Shown: positions 23,266 through 64,000, counted from the first letter of the stretch. The stretch: DNA of 64,000 bases from Patescibacteria group bacterium (GCA_041671325.1 JBAZBR010000002.1:73978-137977); one strand, 5' to 3'. Notes: generated by a model not told the origin, from the sequence alone. Made by a program: numbers and translations.

Positions 23266-23778
23266 ATGAATCCACAATCACGTTCACAAGGCGGCCGCAG
23301 GCAGCCCAGACAAAGAGAAAAGTCTGAATTTGATCAGAAGACCATTGATTTAGCGCGGGTTACCCGCGTGGTAGCTGGAGGCAAGCGTATGCGTTTCCGC
23401 GCCTGCGTGGTTATTGGCGATCGGAAAGGCCGAGTCGGGGTCGGGGTGGCCAAGGGTACGGATGTGCAAATGGCTGTTGAAAAAGCTTCAACTTCAGCCA
23501 AGCGCCACCTTGTCCACGTAGTTTTGCATGGCAGTACCATTCCGCATGCCATTAATTTAAAATTTGGTGCCGCACGGGTTTTACTAAAGCCAGCACCAGC
23601 TGGGTCTGGAGTTATTGCTGGCGGCGCGGCTAGAGCCGTGCTTGATTTGGCAGGCATTCGGGATGTGGTCAGCAAAATGCTTGGTTCAAAAAATAAGATC
23701 AACAATGTTCGTGCGGTCATAATGGCATTAAGCCAGTTAAAGCCCCGGACAACTAAAGAAAAAACCGTAGTTGAATAA
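23266..23778 (+). CDS. rpsE: 30S ribosomal protein S5
   Basis: Homology. Confidence 0.95.
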   Translation: MNPQSRSQGGRRQPRQREKSEFDQKTIDLARVTRVVAGGKRMRFRACVVIGDRKGRVGVGVAKGTDVQMAVEKASTSAKRHLVHVVLHGSTIPHAINLKFGAARVLLKPAPAGSGVIAGGAARAVLDLAGIRDVVSKMLGSKNKINNVRAVIMALSQLKPRTTKEKTVVE

Positions 23779-23783
23779 ATTTT

Positions 23784-24284
23784 ATGTCTATTAACCTTTC
23801 TAATTTAAAACCTAGCGTTGGCAGCCGCAAAAAAAAGGTTCGGGTTGGCCGAGGCAATGCTTCGGGTCATGGGACCTTTTCTGGCCGGGGCATTAAAGGC
23901 CAGCGGGCCAGGTCTGGTGGCCGAAAAAAACTGCAAAGGCGCGGCCTGAAGCAGATGCTGATGCAGCTGCCAAAATCCCGAGGTTTTCAGAGCCAGTGGT
24001 CAAAATATTCAGTGGTTAATCTGGTGGAACTGGCTAAGCATTATAAAAATGGTGAAAAAGTGACACCAGAAAATTTAATCAAGGTAAAATTAATTAAACC
24101 AAAGACCTTGGTCAAAATCTTGGGTGGAGGTAAACTTACCCTGAATCTAAATGTTTGGGCTAATGCTTTTTCCAAGAGTGCAATAACCGCAATTGAAAAA
24201 GCTGGCGGAACGGTAAATAAAGTGATTATTCCAGAAGCTTTAAAGCCTAAAAGACAAGCTGAGAAATTAAAAGCTAATAAATAA
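23784..24284 (+). CDS. rplO: 50S ribosomal protein L15 (L30 gene absent between S5 and L15)
   Basis: GRGNASGHGTFSGRG motif. Confidence 0.93.
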   Translation: MSINLSNLKPSVGSRKKKVRVGRGNASGHGTFSGRGIKGQRARSGGRKKLQRRGLKQMLMQLPKSRGFQSQWSKYSVVNLVELAKHYKNGEKVTPENLIKVKLIKPKTLVKILGGGKLTLNLNVWANAFSKSAITAIEKAGGTVNKVIIPEALKPKRQAEKLKANK

Positions 24285-40653: not shown

Positions 40654-42060
40654 ATGAAAAATCCCAAAGGTTTTCTCCCCATCGCCGCAATTATTATTAT
40701 CATAGTGGTTGCTGCCCTCGCCGCAGGCGGTTCGTATTATTACACCAAGACCCTGAATAAAAACACCAATTCCGTATTAAATACCAACATTGCAGTTGTG
40801 GATGAAAATACTAATGCAGTCGTTAACACAAATACAACAGTTGTAAATGGGAATACAAACGTAACCGTAAATTCAAACGGCAATTTGAATACCAATACTG
40901 TGGTCTTAAATACCAATACCGCCGTGAATTTAAATACCAATACGAGTACCATCAAATATCCTGGGCAAGAATGGCCAGGGTTGACTGATAACTCGGTTTT
41001 ATATCAAAAATACTCGAGCACAGCATCTGACGAGAAGGTCTATACTGTCCAACCTGGGCAGCAACCCAGCGTATATTTTACAATTCCAACGGGTTATTCA
41101 TTGGTTTCAAATGAGAGCGGCCGGCTTATTTGGTTGGAGAAAGATAATTATTTATATATTTATGATATTCAAAAAGGGAGCACCAGAAAAACTTCTTTGC
41201 CCGCTTTAATCGCTGGTGAGGTGCGTTTTGAATCTGCAAGACCCACTGTTTACTCAACAGATGGCGTAGAGGTGATTATTCAGTACAGTCTCTTTGATAA
41301 GAATTCCGCCGCATATAATAGTGAATTTGCGGGGCCTAATCCAATTTCCACTAAACGTTACCGTTATAATATTACTACCAACACCTATACCCCTGGAGAA
41401 AACATGAGCGGGATATTTTATTCTTTATGGGATCGTAAATTAAATATTGGCTATAACCATTTAGCCGGTGAAGGGGTTGGTTCCAAGGCCCCTATCGAAA
41501 AGACTTTCTTTGATACCGGAAACACGGAAGACTCTGCGGATTATGGGAATAATTCTACTCCTGCTTTTTCACAAGATGGAAAGTGGGTTGCCGTACCTGA
41601 ACCATCTAAGGCGCCACTGAAAATATATATATTTTCTCTCCCAGATATAAAAAATCCGGTTAAAACCCTCACCTTACCTACCGTGAAAGATACGCCGCCA
41701 GTCACAAATACCTTAGGGTATATTTACGACTTCGAATGGACAACGGATGATCAAAATTTAATCCTTTCATTTAACCACTCTATTTTCGTAATCAATGTGC
41801 AAACAGAAAAAGCCACAAAGGTTTTCGATAATACCCAAAATGATTCAAGTTATACTGGATGGAGTTATTATCCAGAGATATCCGGATCAAATAGGTATAT
41901 TTATTTTGTTGATTACAGCAATTCTAATCCAGCAACCCTCAAACCAGAAAATAACATCGATGAATTAAAGGCGTATGACATCACAACCGGGAAAACTACA
42001 ATTCTATTAAAAACAACTGGAGAAACAAATATTCAATTAATAGGATTTGATAATTTCTAG
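40654..42060 (+). CDS. Paralog 1 of membrane-anchored surface protein family (conserved N-terminal TM + N/T-rich linker, divergent C-terminus)
   Basis: MKNPKGFLPIAAIIIIIVVAALAAGGSYYYTK + NTN repeats shared with 42097 and 43392 genes. Confidence 0.75.
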   Translation: MKNPKGFLPIAAIIIIIVVAALAAGGSYYYTKTLNKNTNSVLNTNIAVVDENTNAVVNTNTTVVNGNTNVTVNSNGNLNTNTVVLNTNTAVNLNTNTSTIKYPGQEWPGLTDNSVLYQKYSSTASDEKVYTVQPGQQPSVYFTIPTGYSLVSNESGRLIWLEKDNYLYIYDIQKGSTRKTSLPALIAGEVRFESARPTVYSTDGVEVIIQYSLFDKNSAAYNSEFAGPNPISTKRYRYNITTNTYTPGENMSGIFYSLWDRKLNIGYNHLAGEGVGSKAPIEKTFFDTGNTEDSADYGNNSTPAFSQDGKWVAVPEPSKAPLKIYIFSLPDIKNPVKTLTLPTVKDTPPVTNTLGYIYDFEWTTDDQNLILSFNHSIFVINVQTEKATKVFDNTQNDSSYTGWSYYPEISGSNRYIYFVDYSNSNPATLKPENNIDELKAYDITTGKTTILLKTTGETNIQLIGFDNF

Positions 42061-42096
42061 TAAAATTTTATTAAGCAAATTTTTAAAATTATAATT

Positions 42097-43287
42097 ATGA
42101 AAAATCCCACAGGTTTTCTCCCCATCGCCGCTATTATAATAATCGTAGTAGTTGCCGCTGTTGTGGCAGGCGGTTCGTATTATTACACCAAATCCTTAAA
42201 TAAAAACACGAATACGGTTGTAAATACAAATGTTGCGATGGTGAATGAAAATACTAATGCGGTTGTTAATACAAACACAACAGTTGTAAATGGGAATACA
42301 AACGTAACCGTAAATTCAAACGGCAATTTGAATACCAATACAGTAATCGTTAACTCAAATACAAATACCGTGGTTAATTCAAATACTAATTCTGATGCAA
42401 CCGCTGGGTGGAAGACGTATACAAATGCAAAACAGGGTTACTCCGTGAAGTATCCAAGTAATTGGGTTACGCAGGTTCAAAACACAAATGGTGGTGAGGT
42501 AGCAAATGGCAATATAACAACCTTTTGGAGTAAGCCAAACTACAAAGATCTTATACCAGAAGGTACTGAGTGGGTACCAACAGATACACTTTATTATTTT
42601 CGTGTCCATTACCAAGACGAAAGTAGTGCAGCAAATGCGGTAGATCCGAACACCAAGAAACTCTCTAGTGAAGCAATAACCGTTGGTGGGATCTCTGGTT
42701 TAAAAGAGGCATATCAGGGTGCGTATGGAAAATGGACGGTTGTTTATGTAACCAAAAATGGCATAAAGTATGGTTTATATTTACCAGACAAAACCGCCGA
42801 ACAACAAGCACATGCATCAACCATCCTTTCCACCTTCACCTTCCTCGACCAAACCGTCGGGTGGAAGACGTATACGAATACAGAATATGGTTTTTCATTT
42901 AAGTACCCTGCTTCTTGGAAAGAGACAGATTACACCGCTTCGGCTGATTCTCCACTGAACAGCGATGGTGTGAAATTTGAGGATTCAGCTGGGAAAGCTG
43001 GTTCGTTTTACTGGATGCAGGGCGGATATGTACCAACCCAAGACGGTCAGTGGGATTCGACGACAACATCATTGACGGTTGGTGGTCGAACAGCTTCACA
43101 AGTCAGAATGACACCTAAAGCCGGTCAACAGTGGGCAGGTGGAGAACCAAAGCCTCGTGCGGTGGTGAGTCTAACTAGTAATCCGACAACTTGGGGGAGT
43201 AATGCAAGTATGGGTTTAGTGCAAGGCTCTGAAAAGTCTTGGGTAACAGTAGATACTATTTTGTCCACCTTCACTTTTACGAAATAA
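42097..43287 (+). CDS. Paralog 2; C-terminal region has two WKTYTN-x-YGFS-x-KYP-x-W repeats
   Basis: N-terminal ~88 aa near-identical to paralogs; ILSTFTF C-terminal motif. Confidence 0.75.
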   Translation: MKNPTGFLPIAAIIIIVVVAAVVAGGSYYYTKSLNKNTNTVVNTNVAMVNENTNAVVNTNTTVVNGNTNVTVNSNGNLNTNTVIVNSNTNTVVNSNTNSDATAGWKTYTNAKQGYSVKYPSNWVTQVQNTNGGEVANGNITTFWSKPNYKDLIPEGTEWVPTDTLYYFRVHYQDESSAANAVDPNTKKLSSEAITVGGISGLKEAYQGAYGKWTVVYVTKNGIKYGLYLPDKTAEQQAHASTILSTFTFLDQTVGWKTYTNTEYGFSFKYPASWKETDYTASADSPLNSDGVKFEDSAGKAGSFYWMQGGYVPTQDGQWDSTTTSLTVGGRTASQVRMTPKAGQQWAGGEPKPRAVVSLTSNPTTWGSNASMGLVQGSEKSWVTVDTILSTFTFTK

Positions 43288-43294
43288 ATTTTTA

Positions 43295-43351
43295 ATGAGC
43301 CGTATTTTAGTCAAAGACGCAACAAAAAGAATTAACGAACCAATCTTGTAA
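43295..43351 (+). pseudogene. Duplicated remnant of the aspS 5' end (MSRILVKDATKRINEPIL*)
   Basis: ~75% nt identity to aspS start (44487: MKRILVKDTVNKINEPVLL). Confidence 0.6.
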
Positions 43352-43391
43352 ATTGGATGACAAAATTTTAGTTAAATTAATATTAAAGAAT

Positions 43392-44477
43392 ATGAAAAAC
43401 CCCAAAGGTTTTCTCCCCATCGCCGCAATTATTATAATCATAGTGGTTGCTGCCCTCGCCGCAGGCGGTTCTTACTATTACACAAAGACCCTGAATAAAA
43501 ACACTAATACCGTGTTAAATACCAATATTGCGGTGGTGAATGAAAATACTAATGCGGTTGTTAATACAAATACAACAGTTGTAAATGGAAATACAAACGT
43601 AACCATGAATTCAAACGGCAATTTGAATACCAATACTGTGGTCGTCAACTCAAACACTAATGTCGTGGTTAATTCAAATACAAATTCTGATGTAACCGCT
43701 GGGTGGAAGACATATACAAGCACAAAATATGGTTTTTCTCTGAAATATCCTCTAACCATGCGTGTTTTAGAGGTAAACGAAACGAGTGGAATAATCCTTA
43801 GGGTAGGTGTTGAGGGGTCGGCAAATGGGGATAATGTTTTGGTTTATAATAAAAGTTCAAATGCTGGAATTCCTTATAGCACAGTTAAATCAGAAAGTGG
43901 TAAGTCTTTCGTTATTTCTCATGTTGGCGTTGAGGCCGATCAAATTCTTTCCACCTTTGTTTTCCTCGATCAAACCGCTGGGTGGAAGACGTATACAAAT
44001 TCTGAATATGGTTGGACTATGAAATATCCGAATGATTGGACGGTCAATAATTCTTATCAGACAACAGATCCGAATGACATTTTTGAAACCCCGATTCGCA
44101 CAACGACTTTCACAAATCCCAACAAGTATTACAGGTTGCTTGTCGGGATAAAAAAGAAAACCGATTCCGGTAGTATTGTCCCACGGACTGGGATTGGAGC
44201 GGGAGAATTTATAAAAGGCGATACAGTTTTAATTGGTAGCACTTCAATGACTTTATGGAATTTAAATTATAATAATTTGACTTCTGAGATTTTTAATTAC
44301 AATCCAAGTACAAATTCCAATTTTGAAATTAGCAATTTTCAATTTATTGCATATTTCGATTGTGGTACAGCAGCAACCATAGAAACAATAAAGCGTTGCG
44401 ATCAAACAAATTTATCAGTAATACCAGAATATAAAACTTTTAAACTTATTCTTGGTTCATTAGTATTGCCTAATTAA
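43392..44477 (+). CDS. Paralog 3; two WKTYT-x-YG-x-KYP repeats
   Basis: Start at MKNPKGF (the track ORF begins 39 nt upstream). Confidence 0.75.
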   Translation: MKNPKGFLPIAAIIIIIVVAALAAGGSYYYTKTLNKNTNTVLNTNIAVVNENTNAVVNTNTTVVNGNTNVTMNSNGNLNTNTVVVNSNTNVVVNSNTNSDVTAGWKTYTSTKYGFSLKYPLTMRVLEVNETSGIILRVGVEGSANGDNVLVYNKSSNAGIPYSTVKSESGKSFVISHVGVEADQILSTFVFLDQTAGWKTYTNSEYGWTMKYPNDWTVNNSYQTTDPNDIFETPIRTTTFTNPNKYYRLLVGIKKKTDSGSIVPRTGIGAGEFIKGDTVLIGSTSMTLWNLNYNNLTSEIFNYNPSTNSNFEISNFQFIAYFDCGTAATIETIKRCDQTNLSVIPEYKTFKLILGSLVLPN

Positions 44478-46193: not shown

Positions 46194-48074
46194 ATGTTAA
46201 AAAAACCGTTTAAAGCAATTGTCGCCCTTTTTTCGGTTTTGGTTTTGGTATTGCCCATGGTGACTAAAGCCGATGGCATGATGGTAGTCCCGCCAAATTA
46301 CTGGATGCGGGAAGACACCCAAAAAGCCGTGGTTTTTTATGATAAAGGTGTTGAGTCTTTGATCCTTTCCATAACCTTCCAGGGCAATGCCAATGACTTT
46401 GGTTGGATTGTACCAACCCCAACCAAGCCAACGGTAACCAAAGGTTCGGATGAAATATTTACCAATTTACAAAAATTAACCAGCACACGTTCAGATTATC
46501 CTGTGTCTGCTTTTGATTTAGGCTTTAGTGGCAGTGAAAAACAAACCAGCGGCGTATCGGTTATTGAAACCAAACAAGTTGATTATTATGATGTGACAAT
46601 TTTAACCGCTACAGATAAAGACGCCTTAACCAAATGGTTTGCGGATAACAAGTATAATTACCCGGAATCTGCCTCTTATATTTTAAACACTTATATCCAG
46701 AATAACTGGTATTTTGTGGCCATGAAGATCAATCCGCAGAGTTTGGAATGGAGCAATGTTACCAGCAGTTTACGGACTGGCCATGCCACGCCCGTGGTCA
46801 TGCAGTTTGCCACTGAAAATATAGTTTATCCTTTAAAAATTTCCACGGTTGTCAGCCAGGCGAATACCAATACTAATGCAAACGCCAACAGCAACACTAA
46901 TACCCCGGTAATTGTTTATGATGCCTCAAATTTCACTTTTGGGCCTGGGAAATTTGGCAAGGCTATAAATATTTCAGGCAGTAAGAATTTATCATATACT
47001 GCTGGAACTGAATTTCCTTATAATAGCGGGACGATTGAAGCCCAAATCAATATCCAGCCCTGGGAAAGCGGAGGTTACCGAAATATTTTGTCAGTCGGGG
47101 ATAGCAAGGGTTCAAATGTTTTTCAATTACGTTTGGCTAAAGCCTATTCTTCTGATACTACAGCAAATCCAGAAGAAACCATTCAGTTTGTTTGGTATAA
47201 AAGTACTGGAAGTAGCTTGATTTGGCGGACTACAGCGTCAACCCCTGTTACGCCAAACACTTGGCATCATGTGGCGGTCACCTGGACAAGCGGCCAAAAA
47301 CCCCAGATTTATTTAGATGGGGTGGCTATGGCAACTAGCGCTGCTTATAATGCAACCACCTGGTTAGGGCAAAGCATCAGCAATGGTTCATTCCAGGTAA
47401 TTGGCAGCCGTTTGGGCAAGTATGAATATTTAAACGGTTATCTAGATGAATACATAGTCCGAAACCAAGCGATAACCGCTACTGAAATTGCAGAAGATGC
47501 CAAGACAGTTATGCCGACTAACCCGACAGTCTCGGCGAAATATGACTCTAACGTGGTCTATTACGCGAATTTTGATGACAATATCAAACTGGAAGATGCC
47601 GCTGGTGTTGAATACAGCCAAAAAGCCGTAGTTATCGTCCAACCAAAGACAATCACCCTTCCTGATTATTATTCAAAATCCCAATACATAACCCTTTATG
47701 TGATTGCTAATGAGCGCAAGGATGCTACGGGTTTTTCCACGACTTATGCCAATTGGTTCAGCAAAAAATCTTTAGAAGATTTAGCTTTTTCTTCAACAGG
47801 TTCGCCCTTACTGGCCGTGAGTGGTAAAAAAATGTTTGTGACAGTCATGAACCGGACAATATCCTCTGGTCAGAACTTGGATGATGTTTTTTTCCGGACG
47901 GCCAGTAGCCAAAGCCTTTTGGGTACTGCTCCAGATTATACGGAAAATGGGACTTTAGCTTTTTGGATATTTTTGGGTGCGGTTTCATTAATTTCAATTG
48001 TTTTAATCTTAATTTTGATTTTGTGGAACCGTCGAACCGTAGCGCCACCAACCAGCCCCCTACCAAAGCTTTAA
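46194..48074 (+). CDS. Secreted/membrane-anchored protein: DUF2330-like N-terminal domain with embedded LamG/concanavalin-like domain, C-terminal TM
   Basis: Signal peptide; VVPP...DFGWIVPTP (DUF2330 signature); WHHVAVTW...IYLDGV (LamG-like); C-terminal hydrophobic helix. Confidence 0.65.
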   Translation: MLKKPFKAIVALFSVLVLVLPMVTKADGMMVVPPNYWMREDTQKAVVFYDKGVESLILSITFQGNANDFGWIVPTPTKPTVTKGSDEIFTNLQKLTSTRSDYPVSAFDLGFSGSEKQTSGVSVIETKQVDYYDVTILTATDKDALTKWFADNKYNYPESASYILNTYIQNNWYFVAMKINPQSLEWSNVTSSLRTGHATPVVMQFATENIVYPLKISTVVSQANTNTNANANSNTNTPVIVYDASNFTFGPGKFGKAINISGSKNLSYTAGTEFPYNSGTIEAQINIQPWESGGYRNILSVGDSKGSNVFQLRLAKAYSSDTTANPEETIQFVWYKSTGSSLIWRTTASTPVTPNTWHHVAVTWTSGQKPQIYLDGVAMATSAAYNATTWLGQSISNGSFQVIGSRLGKYEYLNGYLDEYIVRNQAITATEIAEDAKTVMPTNPTVSAKYDSNVVYYANFDDNIKLEDAAGVEYSQKAVVIVQPKTITLPDYYSKSQYITLYVIANERKDATGFSTTYANWFSKKSLEDLAFSSTGSPLLAVSGKKMFVTVMNRTISSGQNLDDVFFRTASSQSLLGTAPDYTENGTLAFWIFLGAVSLISIVLILILILWNRRTVAPPTSPLPKL

Positions 48075-58210: not shown

Positions 58211-58288
58211 TGGTACCGCCACCGGGATTTGAACCCGGGTTACCAGGATGAGAACCTGGCGTCCTAGACCGAACTAGACGATAGCGGC
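58211..58288 (-). tRNA. tRNA-Glu (anticodon CTC)
   Basis: Cloverleaf: acceptor GCCGCTA/TGGCGGT (two G-U), anticodon stem CCAGG/CCTGG with loop TTCTCAT, T-arm CCGGG-TTCAAAT-CCCGG, CCA encoded. Confidence 0.75.
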
Positions 58289-58521
58289 ATGGTCTTTAAT
58301 GAGTTTTCTAAGTAATCCTGATTTCTTGATTTGTATTTCCCTTTTTAGAGCTTGGATTTTTAAAGCTAATGTTCAGTTTTGATAATACCATAAGGAATGT
58401 ACGCTTTTGTTGATTTAACTTTTCCTTTATTGTGTTCATTAAAGCGCCTTTGGATATTATCAGTAACGCCAATGTACAATCTGTTAAATTTCGGACTTCT
58501 CAAAATGTAAAGATAAAACAT
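58289..58521 (-). pseudogene. GIY-YIG nuclease (UPF0213-like), frameshifted; intact N-terminal 51 codons (58366..58521) then continuation in another frame abutting tRNA-Glu
   Basis: MFYLYILRSPKFNRLYIGVTDNIQRRFNEHNKG...PYGIIKTE then stop; +2 frame continues ALKREIQIKKSGLLRKLIK matching the family C-terminus. Confidence 0.6.
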
Positions 58522-58773
58522 AGGTTTGAATGATACCCGGCAGAGCCGGGTCCGGCTTTGCCGGAAGAACCAAGTGTCCTAGCCGCTTCAGGCATAGCTT
58601 GATCCGGCACTGCCGGAAGACGATGGCGCCATAAGTTTAAGTTATATTTTGTTTGTATCCATGTCAATTTTTTACCCTATTGACAGATAATTGCTGGGGT
58701 ATTAGTCAAGTGTTATTCTAAGCAACAGTTGGTTTTTTGTTTTAAACATTAGCTTTAGGAAAGGCAGGCCAAA

Positions 58774-58947
58774 ATGTCTGATGGAAAAAAGACAAAAAAG
58801 GCTCCTTCTGAAGCATTTCCGATTCAGTTGCCCGTGGTGGATTTTTCAATCTTGGGTCCGCCCTGCCAAATGTGTGGCGACACTGGGGCTAATGCCTTGA
58901 ATAATGGCGAACCATGTGTCTGTCAAATCGGCAGAAAGAAAGACTGA
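58774..58947 (+). CDS. Small Cys-containing protein (57 aa), not in the ORF track
   Basis: AGGAAAGG RBS; CQMCGD...CVCQIG; followed by terminator. Confidence 0.45.
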   Translation: MSDGKKTKKAPSEAFPIQLPVVDFSILGPPCQMCGDTGANALNNGEPCVCQIGRKKD

Positions 58948-58964
58948 ATCCAGGAAAAAGAAAT

Positions 58965-58991
58965 GAGCGTTCTGTAAAGGGGCGCTCTTTT
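58965..58991 (+). terminator. Rho-independent terminator
   Basis: GAGCG...CGCTC + TTTT. Confidence 0.55.
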
Positions 58992-58995
58992 CCTC

Positions 58996-59020
58996 AATTA
59001 AAAACTGACCCCCGTGAAAA
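58996..59020 (+). repeat. 25-bp direct repeat copy 1 (AATTAAAAACTGACCCCCGTGAAAA)
   Basis: Identical copy at 60074-60098. Confidence 0.8.
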
Positions 59021-59049
59021 ATCATCGGAATATTTTTATTTAATAGTGC

Positions 59050-59077
59050 TTGACAATAATATTTGATTATGATAAGT
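59050..59077 (+). promoter_or_regulatory. Putative promoter TTGACA-N16-ATAAGT (ATTATGATAAGTT motif)
   Basis: Consensus -35; shared extended -10. Confidence 0.45.
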
Positions 59078-59157
59078 TGCGTGGTCGAGTTTGGGTCTTT
59101 TACAATTTGAAAACATTAACGTAAACATAAACAAAACGCAAAGAAAGCGAGGCAAAG

Positions 59158-60015
59158 ATGCAACTTTTAGGAGGAAATGTCCGTTGGGATAAGGGCGATT
59201 GGCAGGAAAGCGCCGGGAATAGGTCTTTGGACCAGAAAGTCGAAGTCAATGGAGTCATTTGGCGGGTTAAAATCCAGAGTCTTACCGGACGGGGTGGCGT
59301 AGTCGGGTGTACATCCGAATGTTATTATGCCAATGTCGGTACGGACCAGATTTCGGTGGTTATTAAGATGGGAAAAGAGGGCTTTGGCGAGCCGCCTATT
59401 TATACCGTACAGATAGGTTGGAGCAATACGGATAAGCACGAACAAGCCACATACCGCTATTGCTTCAATACTGCCTATGACGAAGCAAACGTCATTGATT
59501 GGGAGATTTTACCAGCCGACAAGCCCGATTTGTTGGAAAAGATTTTCGATATCCAGCAAATACTGTCGGTGTTTGATCACAGCAAGACCTTCGACTATGC
59601 CCTGAAGCATTTGCGGCATAAGCTGGACCACCCCGAGAAATCAACAACCTACATTTTGTTTAGGGACGTTACTATGAGTCCGAACAAAATCACTGGATCA
59701 TTTTTATTGCTGGGTCCCCGGCGTACGCTGCTAGGGTTTGATGGGAGTGAAAAAGGGTTTTTGTATGGCGGATTCCAGCTTTTTAGTCGTTCGGGCGAGG
59801 ATATCTCCTCCAGGAGCGGCAGTCTAAGTTTGTCTCTAAAGGATGGGTATTATGAAATATTTATCCTTAATCCGGCCAATTGTGGTAATAGCACCTGGAT
59901 TAAAGTCTTCAGTGCTGATGACAGCAAAAATCTGGTACCCGAAACCGTAGAAATCCCAGGCGACGTTTCCCAGTTCATCCTGTCCTTGGCATCGCCAGTT
60001 ACGGCTGCTGAATAA
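59158..60015 (+). CDS. Hypothetical protein (285 aa), sole ORF of the direct-repeat-flanked cassette
   Basis: GAGG RBS; no recognizable motifs. Confidence 0.6.
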   Translation: MQLLGGNVRWDKGDWQESAGNRSLDQKVEVNGVIWRVKIQSLTGRGGVVGCTSECYYANVGTDQISVVIKMGKEGFGEPPIYTVQIGWSNTDKHEQATYRYCFNTAYDEANVIDWEILPADKPDLLEKIFDIQQILSVFDHSKTFDYALKHLRHKLDHPEKSTTYILFRDVTMSPNKITGSFLLLGPRRTLLGFDGSEKGFLYGGFQLFSRSGEDISSRSGSLSLSLKDGYYEIFILNPANCGNSTWIKVFSADDSKNLVPETVEIPGDVSQFILSLASPVTAAE

Positions 60016-60023
60016 GCCGACCA

Positions 60024-60074
60024 AAGACCGTTTGGGTAGTGGCATTTGTCCATTGCCAAACGGTCTTTATTTAT
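60024..60074 (+). terminator. Rho-independent terminator (12-bp stem)
   Basis: AAGACCGTTTGG...CCAAACGGTCTT + TATTTAT. Confidence 0.65.
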
Positions 60075-60098
60075 AATTAAAAACTGACCCCCGTGAAA
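60074..60098 (+). repeat. 25-bp direct repeat copy 2
   Basis: Identical to 58996-59020. Confidence 0.8.
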
Positions 60099-60122
60099 AT
60101 TCACAGGGGTGAAGACCTAACA

Positions 60123-60368
60123 TCAATTGAAGTTTTTCATAACTCCATAAATCACGAGGGTCAGTCCGCCGAAAAAGAACAGGGTTTCAATCAATAAGCC
60201 AATGACGGCTAAATGATTTTTGCGATTGCTTCGGCGCCGCCTCTTTTTCTTGGTGGCAAATACAAATAGGACTGCGCCAGTTAAAATCGCATCAAGCCCA
60301 TGTGGAATAAACATAGGTTTAATTCTAATTAAGGCGAAATCTTGGCCTTGGCTTTGACTAAAGCCCAT
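60123..60368 (-). CDS. Small 2-TM membrane protein with KKKRRRRSNRK loop
   Basis: Hydrophobicity; start uncertain (60368 or 60314). Confidence 0.45.
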   Translation of the reverse strand: MGFSQSQGQDFALIRIKPMFIPHGLDAILTGAVLFVFATKKKRRRRSNRKNHLAVIGLLIETLFFFGGLTLVIYGVMKNFN

Positions 60369-60564
60369 GGCCTGCTCGTGTTTTATGAAGTTTTCAAAGG
60401 ACTTTTTAGCATTAAAATATAGCGCAGGAATAAATACTTGTCAAAGTTCGTTTATTATCATCCTGAACGTAAGTAAGGATCTTCATAGGGGTATTAATAT
60501 TTATAAAGATTCTTCCCCCGCGACTGCGGGGTCAGAATGACAGAAAAGAAATTTTTCCAAACAA

Positions 60565-60600
60565 AAAACACCCCGGAAATTAATCCGAGGTGTTTTTTTA
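60565..60600. terminator. Bidirectional terminator-like hairpin in a 490-nt ORF-free region
   Basis: AACACCCCGG...CCGAGGTGTT flanked by A and T runs. Confidence 0.5.
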
Positions 60601-60854
60601 TAGTTAATAAATCATGTATTTATTCCTCCCTGCCAGCAGAAGCTTTGACAAAAGTCGAAGCGAAGGCTGGCTATTTTTTATTAATTATTAGCCCTCCATA
60701 ATTCAGTTGATGATAATTAATTATCCCCAACTGAAGAAGAGAAGGGATGAATTTGCATCCCTTAGCTGGATTTCAGGGCAGCTACCCCGATGAACAATGT
60801 CACATAATTATGCTCCTGTTCCCAAAAGATTTTTGTTTAGGATACAAGACCAGC

Positions 60855-61481
60855 CTAAGCCGGCAAGGTATTCAAAGTTTTTGGCTTGGAAAATTTTTCG
60901 GCTATTGGGTCTTTGCCAATGACCCAATAATAATAAAGGATGCCGAGCCAGCCGTGGGATATCCCAAGCAGTAGCAGATTTGGCTCTTGCTGGAAAAATA
61001 ACGAGAAGCAAAAGCCAAGCAACAGAGTCGCGGGCATGAGCCATTTATCTGGCACATGTAAAGACATGAACGCCAGACCGGTTATGAGCGCTATTATCAT
61101 CGGGGGCAAGCCAAATCCCACCAGCCTTATATTGATGTATGAGAGGATGAGGAATTGCTGGGCACAACCCCAAAGCGGGTATAGGAACAAAGAAATGGTC
61201 ATGTTTTTGTTCCACTTTAGTTTCTCGCGAATGGCGCCTATGATAAACATAATGAAAGCCAGTGTCAGCGAGAAGATAAGAATACCGAGCCAATTCGCAG
61301 ACCAGTTATCAGTCCGAATTCCAATTTGAATCAGGGAATAACCGGCTGTAGCTTGCGAATGAATAATCCAGATGCCAGCTGGCAATAAAATCGCCAGGTT
61401 TACCCAGAAAATCTTTTTAAGTTTACTGGGCAAAAGCGCATATACGGCCAAAGCACAGAAAACCAAAACCAGTTCTAACAT
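60855..61481 (-). CDS. Polytopic membrane protein (hypothetical)
   Basis: 6-7 predicted TM helices. Confidence 0.6.
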   Translation of the reverse strand: MLELVLVFCALAVYALLPSKLKKIFWVNLAILLPAGIWIIHSQATAGYSLIQIGIRTDNWSANWLGILIFSLTLAFIMFIIGAIREKLKWNKNMTISLFLYPLWGCAQQFLILSYINIRLVGFGLPPMIIALITGLAFMSLHVPDKWLMPATLLLGFCFSLFFQQEPNLLLLGISHGWLGILYYYWVIGKDPIAEKFSKPKTLNTLPA

Positions 61482-61612
61482 TATGCTCTACCTCGTTTTT
61501 GTGTTTATTTGTTAGTATTTAGCCACTCTGACAAGCGCGCTGGTTTTTTCAGTGCACTTGATAAGAGCCAGGAACCAAACCAGGTGGTTCGGTTCCTGCT
61601 TTTTTAAAGAAT

Positions 61613-62425
61613 CTAGAAAGCGAAGGTGAATTCCGCAATCCATTTCGACACATCGTCGTAATAGATCTTAATAAATCCACCGTTCTTGTTATAAACATAG
61701 GTCAGTCCCGCCAGGGTGCTAACCTTGTCATTGTCCATGTCCGCGTCAGCCTGCGCATAGGCGCGCAGGTTGTTGCTCAGGTCAAACCTGAACATTTCGG
61801 TTACCATGGGTCCATGGTGATTATAGGCGGAGAAACCCATGGTAAAGGTTGGATACCACGCAATTTCATCGGGTTTGTTTATGGTGGTATTCAGGCCGAA
61901 TCCCACTATATCTTCCCAATAGAACCACGTACTGCCGTAATTAACAGCGACACTTGTGCCGCTGTTGTAGTTGGCAGCAATCAGGCAAAATCCTGCCTTT
62001 TGCACCGTAACTTTGAGTCCGGTTGAAAGGCAAGAAAATCCCATGGTAGTTCCAGGCCATCTTGTCTGTTCCAACATCTTGGGTCCGGGCCAGACATGCC
62101 AGACCGGGTTTAAAAACCAGCCGGCAATAATTGTGGACTTGAATCCAGCCACGGTATCGACAAACCCCCCAAAAGCCGTATGCACACAGCTTTTGTAGGC
62201 GTTCCAATCCAGGTTCCCGACAAAAGAACCCCGATTGGCATCCACCCCAATCCTTATTCGAGAGAAAGAGTAGTCCTGGCTTTTTTCGGTCGGGATATAA
62301 ATCCCGCCAAAAATATAGGGTTTCAGGTTGTAGTCCGAAAGCACCTCGGACTTGGTTTCACCCAAGAGAATCGCCGCCAGGATCGTAGCGATAATAACGA
62401 CCAGGATCAGATTAAACTTCTTCAC
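61613..62425 (-). CDS. Secreted beta-strand-rich protein with OMP-like C-terminal signature (…AEFTFAF), candidate beta-barrel
   Basis: GTG start 6 nt after AAGGAGG; signal peptide MKKFNLILVVIIATILAAILLG; alternating hydrophobic dyads; terminal Phe. Confidence 0.6.
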   Translation of the reverse strand: MKKFNLILVVIIATILAAILLGETKSEVLSDYNLKPYIFGGIYIPTEKSQDYSFSRIRIGVDANRGSFVGNLDWNAYKSCVHTAFGGFVDTVAGFKSTIIAGWFLNPVWHVWPGPKMLEQTRWPGTTMGFSCLSTGLKVTVQKAGFCLIAANYNSGTSVAVNYGSTWFYWEDIVGFGLNTTINKPDEIAWYPTFTMGFSAYNHHGPMVTEMFRFDLSNNLRAYAQADADMDNDKVSTLAGLTYVYNKNGGFIKIYYDDVSKWIAEFTFAF

Positions 62426-62765
62426 GTTTTCCTCCTTGCCCACTGAAGCCTGAAAGGCGTAGGTGGGCTGTTGGTTTTTTAGTTTTATTTTCTGTTTTCA
62501 AGTCAGGCCAGGGGAGAGAGTGTTCTCGTTTTAATAATTAACTCATTATCCAAAATTTAAAATTTTGTTTAAAAGTTAATTACCCGTCCTTCGTCCTCGC
62601 CAATAGCGGGACTTCGGAGGGCAAGAATTCCTGACCTGGCTTGAAAACAGATTTGTTAATCCTCCGTAGCCTAGGCGCAGGAGGACTTCACAACAAACCC
62701 ACGAATGGATCATGAGTTTGAGAATGAAGGGGACCAGCAGATGCCAGTCCCACTTCGAAACAGCT

Positions 62766-63251
62766 TTAGATTCCAAGTGGTTCGCACTTGGTCATTTTGC
62801 CTCCATCGTAGGTAGCCTTGGCCAGCGGCACGCCAAAGATGTTTGTTGGTAATCCCTGAAAAGAACAACCAACCTCAATTTTAAAAGTTGTATGCCAGCC
62901 CCAAAGGTAGAGTTTGTTTTGAGCAACTACCTTCCAATGGAAAGTGGAGTCAGCAAAAAGTGAGTCTTTGACATACAATCTTCCAGATATCTCGCTTTCA
63001 CCAAAAGCGATTTTAGTGGCGCCAGCGTTGTAGTAAATCTCAACGCTGTCTTTCTGCATAAGCCAGCCACCGTAATTAATGCCCCCAAAATAAATCATGG
63101 TTCCGTCAGTTCCTTCCGCCACAGTAAATGGGGCTCTTTCGGCAAAATGGATATCGTTGCAATATAAGAACAAGTAGCCTATAAAGCCAATTAAACCAGT
63201 CATAAAGACTACGATCAACCTGATGAAAAGTTTTGTTCCTAACGATGACAT
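62766..63251 (-). CDS. Membrane-anchored hypothetical protein
   Basis: N-terminal TM; SD GGTAAGGAGA upstream. Confidence 0.6.
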   Translation of the reverse strand: MSSLGTKLFIRLIVVFMTGLIGFIGYLFLYCNDIHFAERAPFTVAEGTDGTMIYFGGINYGGWLMQKDSVEIYYNAGATKIAFGESEISGRLYVKDSLFADSTFHWKVVAQNKLYLWGWHTTFKIEVGCSFQGLPTNIFGVPLAKATYDGGKMTKCEPLGI

Positions 63252-63371
63252 ACAATCTCCTTACCACATCCGTGGTTGTTTTTTATTTATTTTTTCACTC
63301 TTAAGTTTGTGAAAGTTCGTAAACTTAAGAGTGAAGGGGAGCGAGCAAATATATGCACGTTCCCCCGAAAG

Positions 63372-63974
63372 TCATAATGGACTAGCAAAAATTCTGGATA
63401 CCCGCCAACCAGCAGGGTTGTACCACGGGATGTTTTTGTCCCGTGACCAGTAAATCATACTAGTTTTGCCAATGACTTTTGCTTTGGGTACGCAGCCCCA
63501 ATAGCGAGAATCATAGCTATTGTCGCGGTTATCACCCATGACAAAATATTGATTTTTCGGAACCACTATTGGTCCCATGTTATCCCGAGGCTCCTCCTCG
63601 ATTGAATAGATTCGAGCGTCAATGCGCTGGAATAATGGAGGTTCAGGGAGTATTTTGCTATTGATGAAGACAACCTTGTCGACAATCTTCAGGGTGTCGC
63701 CCGGCAAACCAACGACCCGCTTGATATAGCGCTTGGAAGGATCAAGTGGGAACTTAAAGACAATGACATCCCCACGCTTTGGCGCGCCACTTAAGTAGGC
63801 GAGCTTGTTGAAGAAGATTAAATCTCCGGTAAGCAAACTGCCTTCCATGGAACCGGAAACCACGTTATATGCGTCAACAATGAAGAAGCGCAGTAGGAAC
63901 GCAGCAATAAAAGATACTACTACCGTTTCCACAAGCAAAAGCCAAAACGGTTTTGGTTTTTTCAGCTTTTCCAT
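63372..63974 (-). CDS. lepB: Signal peptidase I
   Basis: SGSMEGSL (Ser box), KRVVGLPGD (Lys box), VMGDNRDNSYDSRYWG. Confidence 0.92.
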   Translation of the reverse strand: MEKLKKPKPFWLLLVETVVVSFIAAFLLRFFIVDAYNVVSGSMEGSLLTGDLIFFNKLAYLSGAPKRGDVIVFKFPLDPSKRYIKRVVGLPGDTLKIVDKVVFINSKILPEPPLFQRIDARIYSIEEEPRDNMGPIVVPKNQYFVMGDNRDNSYDSRYWGCVPKAKVIGKTSMIYWSRDKNIPWYNPAGWRVSRIFASPL

Positions 63975-64000
63975 CTCTTTATCCTCTAAATAAAATTTTC

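Follow-up and report, generated by a model that had tools for sequence, protein, structure and literature searches.

General porins, such as that of Rhodobacter blasticus (1PRN) and OmpF, OmpC, OmpK36 and OmpU, are barrels of 16 antiparallel β-strands that carry an N-terminal Sec signal, end their C-terminal strand in a phenylalanine and are constricted by L3, a long and partly helical loop between strands 5 and 6. Channels are also found in outer layers that are not made of lipopolysaccharide (LPS); among these, MspA of mycobacteria is an octameric goblet of a different fold. In the toga of Thermotoga, barrels are organized in two-dimensional arrays (PMC10160955), and Thermotogae have BamA. 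OmpM proteins (SLH-porins, e.g., Veillonella OmpM1, 8BYS) combine a 16-strand porin barrel with an S-layer homology (SLH) domain and a periplasmic extension, and have been proposed as the ancestral porins of Terrabacteria (PMC10628300; 10.1101/2021.05.31.446380), the supergroup to which the candidate phyla radiation (CPR, Patescibacteria) is assigned; published work has porins and SLH domains lost in the Chloroflexi/CPR clade. CPR bacteria are indeed described as devoid of an outer membrane (PMC6744442, PMC7906910, PMC12102498), their genomes as devoid of PilQ and TonB-ExbBD (PMC6744442), and we found no prior description of porins or BamA in CPR in the literature searched. Here we describe a gene from a CPR genome that encodes a 270-residue protein predicted, with high confidence, to adopt a 16-strand porin-like β-barrel fold. 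It occupies positions 61613-62425, on the minus strand, of a stretch of 64,000 nucleotides (hereafter, the window) from a Patescibacteria group bacterium (GCA_041671325.1, JBAZBR010000002.1:73978-137977).

When modelled with AlphaFold2 from a 48-sequence family alignment, the protein reaches a mean predicted local distance difference test (pLDDT) score of 94.3 and a predicted template modelling (pTM) score of 0.83, with all five models scoring at least 93.3. As assigned by DSSP, the model consists of a helix at residues 2-23 followed, about 10 residues past the signal sequence, by 16 β-strands in a strict up-down antiparallel meander, whose connections span 2-10 residues throughout, save for a 27-residue loop between strands 5 and 6. 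Each of the 16 strands has one hydrophobic and one polar face (mean Kyte-Doolittle hydropathy +1.74 and -0.93, respectively), which agrees with the alternating hydrophobic pattern from which a preliminary description of the locus, made from the DNA alone, had suggested an outer-membrane-type β-barrel. The structure prediction that the same description had put forward as a check thus supports a barrel, and neither a sandwich nor a lectin. A Foldseek search of the PDB with this model returned porins for all of its top 50 matches, 16- to 18-stranded and 10-14% identical in sequence; the best are 16-stranded and include the R. blasticus porin (1PRN family; E-value 2e-6, template modelling score ~0.6) and OmpF/OmpC/OmpK36/OmpU. 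A soluble β-sandwich, lectin or lipocalin-like cell-surface binding protein could be entertained on the grounds that neither porin families nor solved structures give a sequence match, and that a first AlphaFold2 run, made with three close homologues only, was uninformative (pLDDT 39.9). We nevertheless find such a protein hardly credible, given the confident 16-strand meander, the exclusively porin-like structural matches, and a hydrophobic face on each strand of a barrel too wide for that face to be a buried core.

The likeness to general porins covers the strand number, the Sec signal, the terminal phenylalanine and the structural matches (Foldseek E-values of 2e-6 to 1e-4), and extends to the loop between strands 5 and 6 (residues 106-132, NPVWHVWPGPKMLEQTRWPG..., at 62030-62110 on the minus strand), which lies exactly at the position of the constriction loop L3. 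It is partly helical (residues 107-111, 115-117 and 125-127, between strands at 95-105 and 133-143) and holds the best-conserved motif of the family, with the consensus FLxPxxxxYPGPKxLxLTRWP in the 48-sequence alignment; only two columns of that alignment are invariant, one of them G102, at the end of strand 5 and just before the loop. Judged from the DSSP string and the Foldseek alignments, the barrel would be closed and this loop may fold inwards, and any view of the pore radius has the same basis. On the other hand, the CPR protein has no detectable sequence similarity to general porins, its mature chain of ~245 residues compares with 289 in the R. blasticus porin, the shortest close structural match, and its host is believed to be without an outer membrane. 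Veillonella OmpM1 also appears among the structural matches (rank 37, E-value 1.7e-4) but, unlike it, the CPR protein consists of the barrel only, with neither an SLH domain (no Pfam domain whatsoever was found in it) nor a periplasmic extension, and shares no sequence similarity with it. Two significant matches were found in BFVD (E-values of 7e-6 to 1e-5), one annotated as a Siphoviridae "phosphate-selective porin O and P" and the other unnamed; the resemblance is at the level of the fold only, and viral contigs yielded no relative of the CPR family. With MspA and the toga barrels the analogy is one of function only, as channels in a non-LPS outer layer.

The reading frame itself is well delimited. 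The longest open reading frame (ORF) spans 61613-62443 and would encode 276 residues, while the 270-residue version starts at a GTG (62425-62423) preceded, with a spacer of 5 nucleotides, by a perfect Shine-Dalgarno sequence, AAGGAGG (62437-62431), as read directly in the DNA and as the preliminary description had noted; the stop codon is at 61613-61615. This version is supported by the ORF list, by the AlphaFold2, Foldseek and substitution-rate results, and by an identical 270-residue protein held by NCBI (MAG hypothetical protein WCT08_03520, Patescibacteria group bacterium, on a contig of 229,691 bp). At the locus of a close relative, L002, translation of the frame ahead of the called start (1229) gives ...QQGGN before V-KKF, which is compatible with a GGAGG-type site and a GTG start there. 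The N-terminus of the protein is VKKFNLILVVIIATILAAILLG... (a longer stretch being VKKFNLILVVIIATILAAILLGETK), where a putative signal sequence of about 22 residues (62360-62425), coincident with the helix at 2-23 in the model, combines a KK pair with a hydrophobic stretch of 19 residues. The C-terminus, KWIAEFTFAF, forms the last strand (61616-61645), with a β-signal-like motif that matches the family consensus. With two homologues that are 60-63% identical to it, the gene has ratios of non-synonymous to synonymous substitution rates (dN/dS) of 0.10-0.19, at synonymous sites that are near saturation. The gene is real and under purifying selection: a chance ORF can be dismissed because of the 60-63% identical homologues, the 61 relatives among 1.84 billion cluster representatives, and the low dN/dS.

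To collect these relatives, we searched all 1.84 billion representatives exhaustively with HMMER, using a three-sequence profile as the query, and obtained 61 sequences at an E-value of 1e-3 or better, 23 of them at 1e-10 or better, nearly all with 250-290 residues and matching from end to end. A word-indexed search retrieved the two homologues at 63% and 60% identity, and gave just 5 proteins when carried out with the 48-sequence alignment; scans of metagenomes and viral contigs with an alignment of the close clade gained nothing further. By a simple heuristic, 52 of the 63 members have a signal-peptide-like N-terminus, many with cleavage sites of the VNA/VSA/AQA (AxA) type, while in the clade of the window the signal sequence has an unusually long hydrophobic core (~19 residues) and a poor cleavage site, and its cleavage is putative. 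At the other end, 36 members terminate in phenylalanine, 48 have a hydrophobic-x-hydrophobic-x-aromatic pattern within 3 residues of the end, and the consensus is E-x-T-F-[AST]-F. Both the signal peptide and the β-signal-like end (here AEFTFAF) pointed out in the preliminary description are thus features of most of the family. The search against outer membrane protein families that it had proposed found no porin family: none of 48 members matches any Pfam model at an E-value of 0.01 or better, the only Pfam match of the target itself is a sub-threshold one to DUF3963, neither the target nor three further members match NCBIfam, and a PDB sequence search with the family profile found no solved structure. 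No second copy was found in the window or in the CPR loci examined, and a heuristic combining a signal peptide with a β-signal-like end, applied to the window and nine related loci, picked out this family together with an incidental SecY and one overlapping ORF. We conclude that this is an undescribed minimal porin-like family, a general porin by architecture that stands outside the tested porin families by sequence.

That the host belongs to the CPR follows firmly from the gene content of the same contig and agrees with the NCBI label and with the CPR-like genome that the preliminary description had presumed. The distance from the porin-like gene to secY, with which the ribosomal protein operon ends, is 36 kb; SecY shares 92% identity with that of Candidatus Kerfeldbacteria, its other best named relatives are Patescibacteria, and among its top 120 matches all named ones with a lineage are CPR, two being labelled "bacterium" only. 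The genes for ribosomal proteins L18, S5 and L15 are contiguous (window 23266-24284), with a gap of 5 bp between S5 and L15 and no room for L30, as in the ribosomal signature reported for CPR. The same description presumed the host to be monoderm, and nothing showed its lineage to be diderm; a single membrane is what the literature gives for CPR in general, and for this Kerfeldbacteria-like lineage it is still presumed. Cryogenic transmission electron microscopy (cryo-TEM) of ultrasmall groundwater cells revealed a periodic outer layer and no outer membrane, in cells attached to Gram-negative hosts (PMC7906910), and for most CPR lineages envelope data are missing (PMC8871954).

The family as a whole is CPR-dominated and lives mainly in CPR/Patescibacteria chromosomes. 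All members that bear organism names are CPR, namely Candidatus Jacksonbacteria, Candidatus Komeilibacteria (on a 487-kb contig), Parcubacteria GW2011_GWA2_43_13, Parcubacteria FeB_17 and Pacebacteria/Paceibacterota. We also scanned one genome per species with a degenerate DNA pattern for the C-terminal motif SF.K.[FY][YW][DE].{10}TF.F, which by design misses the clade of the window. Among 77 matches, hmmsearch confirmed 5, all in CPR metagenome-assembled genomes (Parcubacteria GW2011_GWA2_43_13, Paceibacterota DeMMO6_41, Paceibacter sp., Parcubacteria LiPW_41 and a genome labelled Saccharibacteria); a sixth, in Parcubacteria FeB_17, is cut by the edge of the locus, and the other 71 contain no family ORF by hmmsearch, one of them being marginal and sub-threshold. 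Family members are flanked by housekeeping genes such as those for DnaN, FtsH, GyrA, release factor 1 (RF1), the α subunit of DNA polymerase III, ribosomal proteins, ScpAB, and RecR-DnaB with a P-type ATPase, and CPR-labelled members are spread throughout a star-like neighbour-joining tree. Two members have surroundings that look non-CPR: P0081, near genes for LysR, UbiD, a SurA_N-like protein and a serpin, and P0064, a distant member on a 150-kb contig, where a TonB-dependent receptor is encoded two genes away. When searched with a profile hidden Markov model (HMM) built from named-CPR, CPR-context and unassigned close members, with P0034 and P0064 left out, P0064 scores 184 bits over its full length. 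It is therefore a true member and, given the nearby receptor, the family also occurs where an outer membrane exists.

The composition of the gene raises the question of a foreign origin. Its GC content is 0.483, compared with 0.420 for the window (98th percentile among windows of the same size), and its GC content at third codon positions (GC3), 0.594, is the highest among 63 ORFs (z = 2.5). The enrichment noted in the preliminary description is thus real but mild; the hint of a horizontal origin that was drawn from it is weak, and recent transfer is unsupported. Codon usage departs most from the typical in four ORFs, all of them at 59-64 kb, and one of these is the housekeeping gene lepB. We rejected recent transfer as the main story in view of this atypical lepB, the deep star-like tree and the purifying selection. 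A more radical version, in which a recently imported Gram-negative gene, a contaminant or a mis-assembly sits without a role in a CPR cell, would account for the GC3 value, the local block of atypical codon usage and the tRNA gene and insertion sequence (IS) element nearby. This reading is already largely refuted, and we consider it very improbable. CPR genes flank the porin-like gene on both sides and the ribosomal operon is on the same contig; the gene is under purifying selection; lepB has the same atypical composition; and the viral contig scan found no viral relatives. A recent one-off import from a Gram-negative bacterium is unlikely because the family is deeply diverged, its named relatives, all CPR, being only 20-30% identical, and scattered across many CPR lineages. 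Chimerism and mis-binning are ruled out since the same block of four genes, lepB followed by those for proteins of 161, 270 and 208 residues, is found on at least four contigs from different assemblies.

Taken together, these data make it probable, in our view, that the gene encodes a Sec-exported, selectively maintained, 16-stranded transmembrane barrel of general-porin architecture, from a small, undescribed and mainly CPR family. The precursor would be exported via SecYEG and its signal sequence removed by signal peptidase I, leaving a mature chain of ~245 residues that would fold into a very compact barrel with a hydrophobic outer surface. Such a barrel may act as a water-filled passive channel, in essence a minimal diffusion pore, in which the conserved and partly helical loop between strands 5 and 6 (NP..YxYPGPK.L.LTRW) would provide the constriction, in the manner of L3 in classical porins. 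A hydrophobic exterior makes a soluble form impossible and requires a layer of lipid, or of some other hydrophobic material, around the barrel. In the cytoplasmic membrane, a porin that is open would do harm. Two placements come into question above all, and with somewhat more confidence than doubt we propose that one of them applies: either some CPR bacteria have an unseen outer hydrophobic layer with a minimal porin in it, or they plant a porin of their own in the envelope of their host as a feeding channel. Our tentative first choice is an outer surface layer that belongs to the CPR cell and contains lipid or consists of a barrel lattice, for which the toga of Thermotoga offers an analogy (PMC10160955), with the difference that Thermotogae have BamA. 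In Kerfeldbacteria, Jacksonbacteria, Komeilibacteria and Paceibacterota, such a layer could be a vestige of a diderm Terrabacteria ancestor or a barrel lattice formed without the β-barrel assembly machinery (BAM), and insertion without BAM would be helped by loops that are so unusually short. The envelope of the cell to which the episymbiont attaches is a possible, if rather doubtful, second location, and other placements are unlikely; what is left of our estimate falls to a protein with no current function, or to error.

The strongest version of an outer layer belonging to the CPR cell is that these lineages are diderm, with a true outer membrane and a divergent BAM, and that the protein is their porin; it could also be a relic of the diderm Terrabacteria ancestor, for instance an OmpM-type barrel minus its SLH domain. 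The Sec signal and the conserved aromatic, β-signal-like C-terminus suit BAM substrates, OmpM1 is among the structural matches, and a deep star-like tree with scattered CPR members is what would be expected of old inheritance. Two further signal-peptide-bearing, β-rich proteins encoded near family members (L089 6921-7502 and L003 10922-11611) and the scarcity of envelope data mentioned above would leave room for it as well. Surveys, however, report families linked to the outer membrane as absent from CPR (PMC6744442; 10.1101/2021.05.31.446380), and cryo-TEM shows no outer membrane (PMC7906910). Omp85, LptD, TolC, OmpA and SLH were not seen in the annotated flanks read, the β-signal-end heuristic in the window and nine loci returned essentially only the porin-like family, and in genomes of ~1 Mb without fatty-acid synthesis a second membrane would be costly. 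On these grounds we hold a full outer membrane with BAM to be improbable.

As to the two β-rich proteins, the first (L089 6921-7502) is encoded on the same contig, ~2.5-3 kb past the right end of the window, and has 193 residues, a signal peptide (...TFAQ|T), an alternating C-terminus (RLNVNVNI) and no Pfam match; it may be a second, smaller exported protein of the barrel type. The second (L003 10922-11611), directly 3' of a family member, has 229 residues, a signal peptide, the end ...GISTTIKIF, and no Pfam or NCBIfam match.

In the host-directed alternative, the barrel leaves the episymbiont and inserts into a membrane of the attached host, either the outer or the cytoplasmic one, where the channel would leak nutrients to the parasite. 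Neisseria PorB, which moves into the membranes of target cells, is a precedent. This alternative also fits the reports of CPR as episymbionts on Gram-negative hosts with no outer membrane of their own (PMC7906910), the sporadic occurrence of the family over CPR lineages, and the position of the gene in the window, where it belongs to a group of hypothetical genes of atypical codon usage close to a tRNA-Glu gene and an IS1595 transposase gene. Minimal loops on both sides of the barrel should ease spontaneous insertion, and the member from a diderm genome indicates that a Gram-negative outer membrane can accommodate the fold. At the same time, no delivery domain, toxin domain or linkage to a secretion system was seen, the dN/dS is low, unlike that of many fast-evolving effectors, and most other genomes place the gene in a housekeeping context. 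There is, moreover, no established mechanism by which a monomeric barrel would enter through the LPS leaflet from outside. We therefore rate a host-directed pore as unlikely, though well ahead of an import or a soluble protein.

Several points weigh against our preferred reading, the exported porin-like barrel. There is no known machinery to insert it, because the CPR cells imaged so far are without an outer membrane (PMC7906910), and CPR genomes without PilQ and TonB-ExbBD (PMC6744442). Within the scope of our neighbourhood analysis (the 64-kb window plus ~10 kb, and flanks of ±10 kb in other genomes, which are a minority of each genome), no outer-membrane biogenesis domain was found among the Pfam-annotated genes around family members. 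With 61 clusters, the family is rare and so cannot be a general component of the CPR envelope. The long-cored signal sequence could stay in place as a membrane anchor; export, cleavage, a channel function and, most of all, the location of the protein are inferred.

In its immediate neighbourhood, all on the minus strand, the gene is preceded by one for a 161-residue membrane-anchored protein (62766-63251; 56% identical to the product of L002 418-918, E-value 3e-58; no Pfam or NCBIfam match) and, two genes upstream, by lepB, encoding signal peptidase I (63372-63974; Pfam Peptidase_S26, E-value 7.9e-50). Downstream lies the gene of a 208-residue polytopic membrane protein (60855-61481) that is weakly Rce1/CAAX-protease-like (PF02517, E-value 3.1e-4, below the curated cutoff). 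The position of lepB proves nothing about export or cleavage. The adjacency of the 161-residue protein is kept in the close relative L002; we considered it as a family-wide operon partner and rejected it, since it is kept in L002 only and has no homology to the protein upstream of the Komeilibacteria gene. The porin-like gene may be transcribed alone, because a terminator-like site follows the 161-residue gene (62751-62730), a promoter-like match lies upstream, and a hairpin follows the stop codon. The promoter candidate (TTTAAA-17-GATAAT, 62545-62573, minus strand) is a sigma-70-like consensus match, in a region where such matches are no more frequent than by chance. The hairpin (AGGAACC...GGTTCCT, 61570-61597), read from the DNA and unlisted by the terminator scan, is strong, is flanked by an A-run and a T-run just 3' of the stop, and is possibly a bidirectional terminator.

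The wider surroundings have an island-like look. From a tRNA-Glu gene (58214-58288), a block of ~15 kb, in which most genes are hypothetical, GC content is slightly elevated and codon usage is atypical, covers window 58214-64000 and L089 1-10000; close to its other end are QueH, an IS1595-family transposase (L089 652-1449) and a gene of the Peptidase_C39-like type. Elsewhere in the window, other proteins are surface proteins held by single transmembrane helices; a protein of 626 residues (46194-48074) combines DUF2330, a laminin-G/concanavalin-like domain and a C-terminal transmembrane anchor, and has the look of a monoderm-style surface protein. Three tandem paralogues of 468, 396 and 374 residues (40654-44477) have almost the same membrane anchor at the N-terminus, share a repeat rich in Asn, Thr and Val (...NTNTVVNGNTN...), differ in their C-terminal domains, one of which is weakly PsbP-like, and are flanked by two genes for class II (D/K/N-type) aminoacyl-tRNA synthetases. 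At other loci, we noted a 794-residue protein with a match to the Por_Secre_tail domain (C-terminal sorting in type IX secretion) on the Komeilibacteria contig, at a distance of 8 kb from the family member there (L005 18250-20634), a 1194-residue isoleucyl-tRNA synthetase-like protein with an inserted His_Phos_1 (histidine-phosphatase) domain on a CPR-like contig (L091 3655-7239), and the member P0030 within more than 20 small, same-strand, Pfam-less genes beside a glycosyltransferase cluster (L087 7100-20700), a setting that might represent a prophage or a hypervariable island.

A large part of bacterial diversity belongs to the CPR/Patescibacteria, which are taken as single-membraned in models of outer-membrane gain and loss. 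A maintained protein with a Sec signal, a predicted 16-strand porin fold and a β-signal-like end, present in several of their lineages, is at odds with this view, and the main home of the porin-like family is thus a lineage believed to have no place for a porin. The family offers a handle on the composition of the periodic outer layer of CPR cells and on how solutes move between metabolically minimal episymbionts and their hosts, and a compact, short-looped porin without sequence relatives among the tested families would be of use for studies of BAM-free barrel folding. If it proves true that the protein resides in an unseen outer layer, or is planted as a porin in the host envelope, this would add something new to the cell biology of CPR bacteria.

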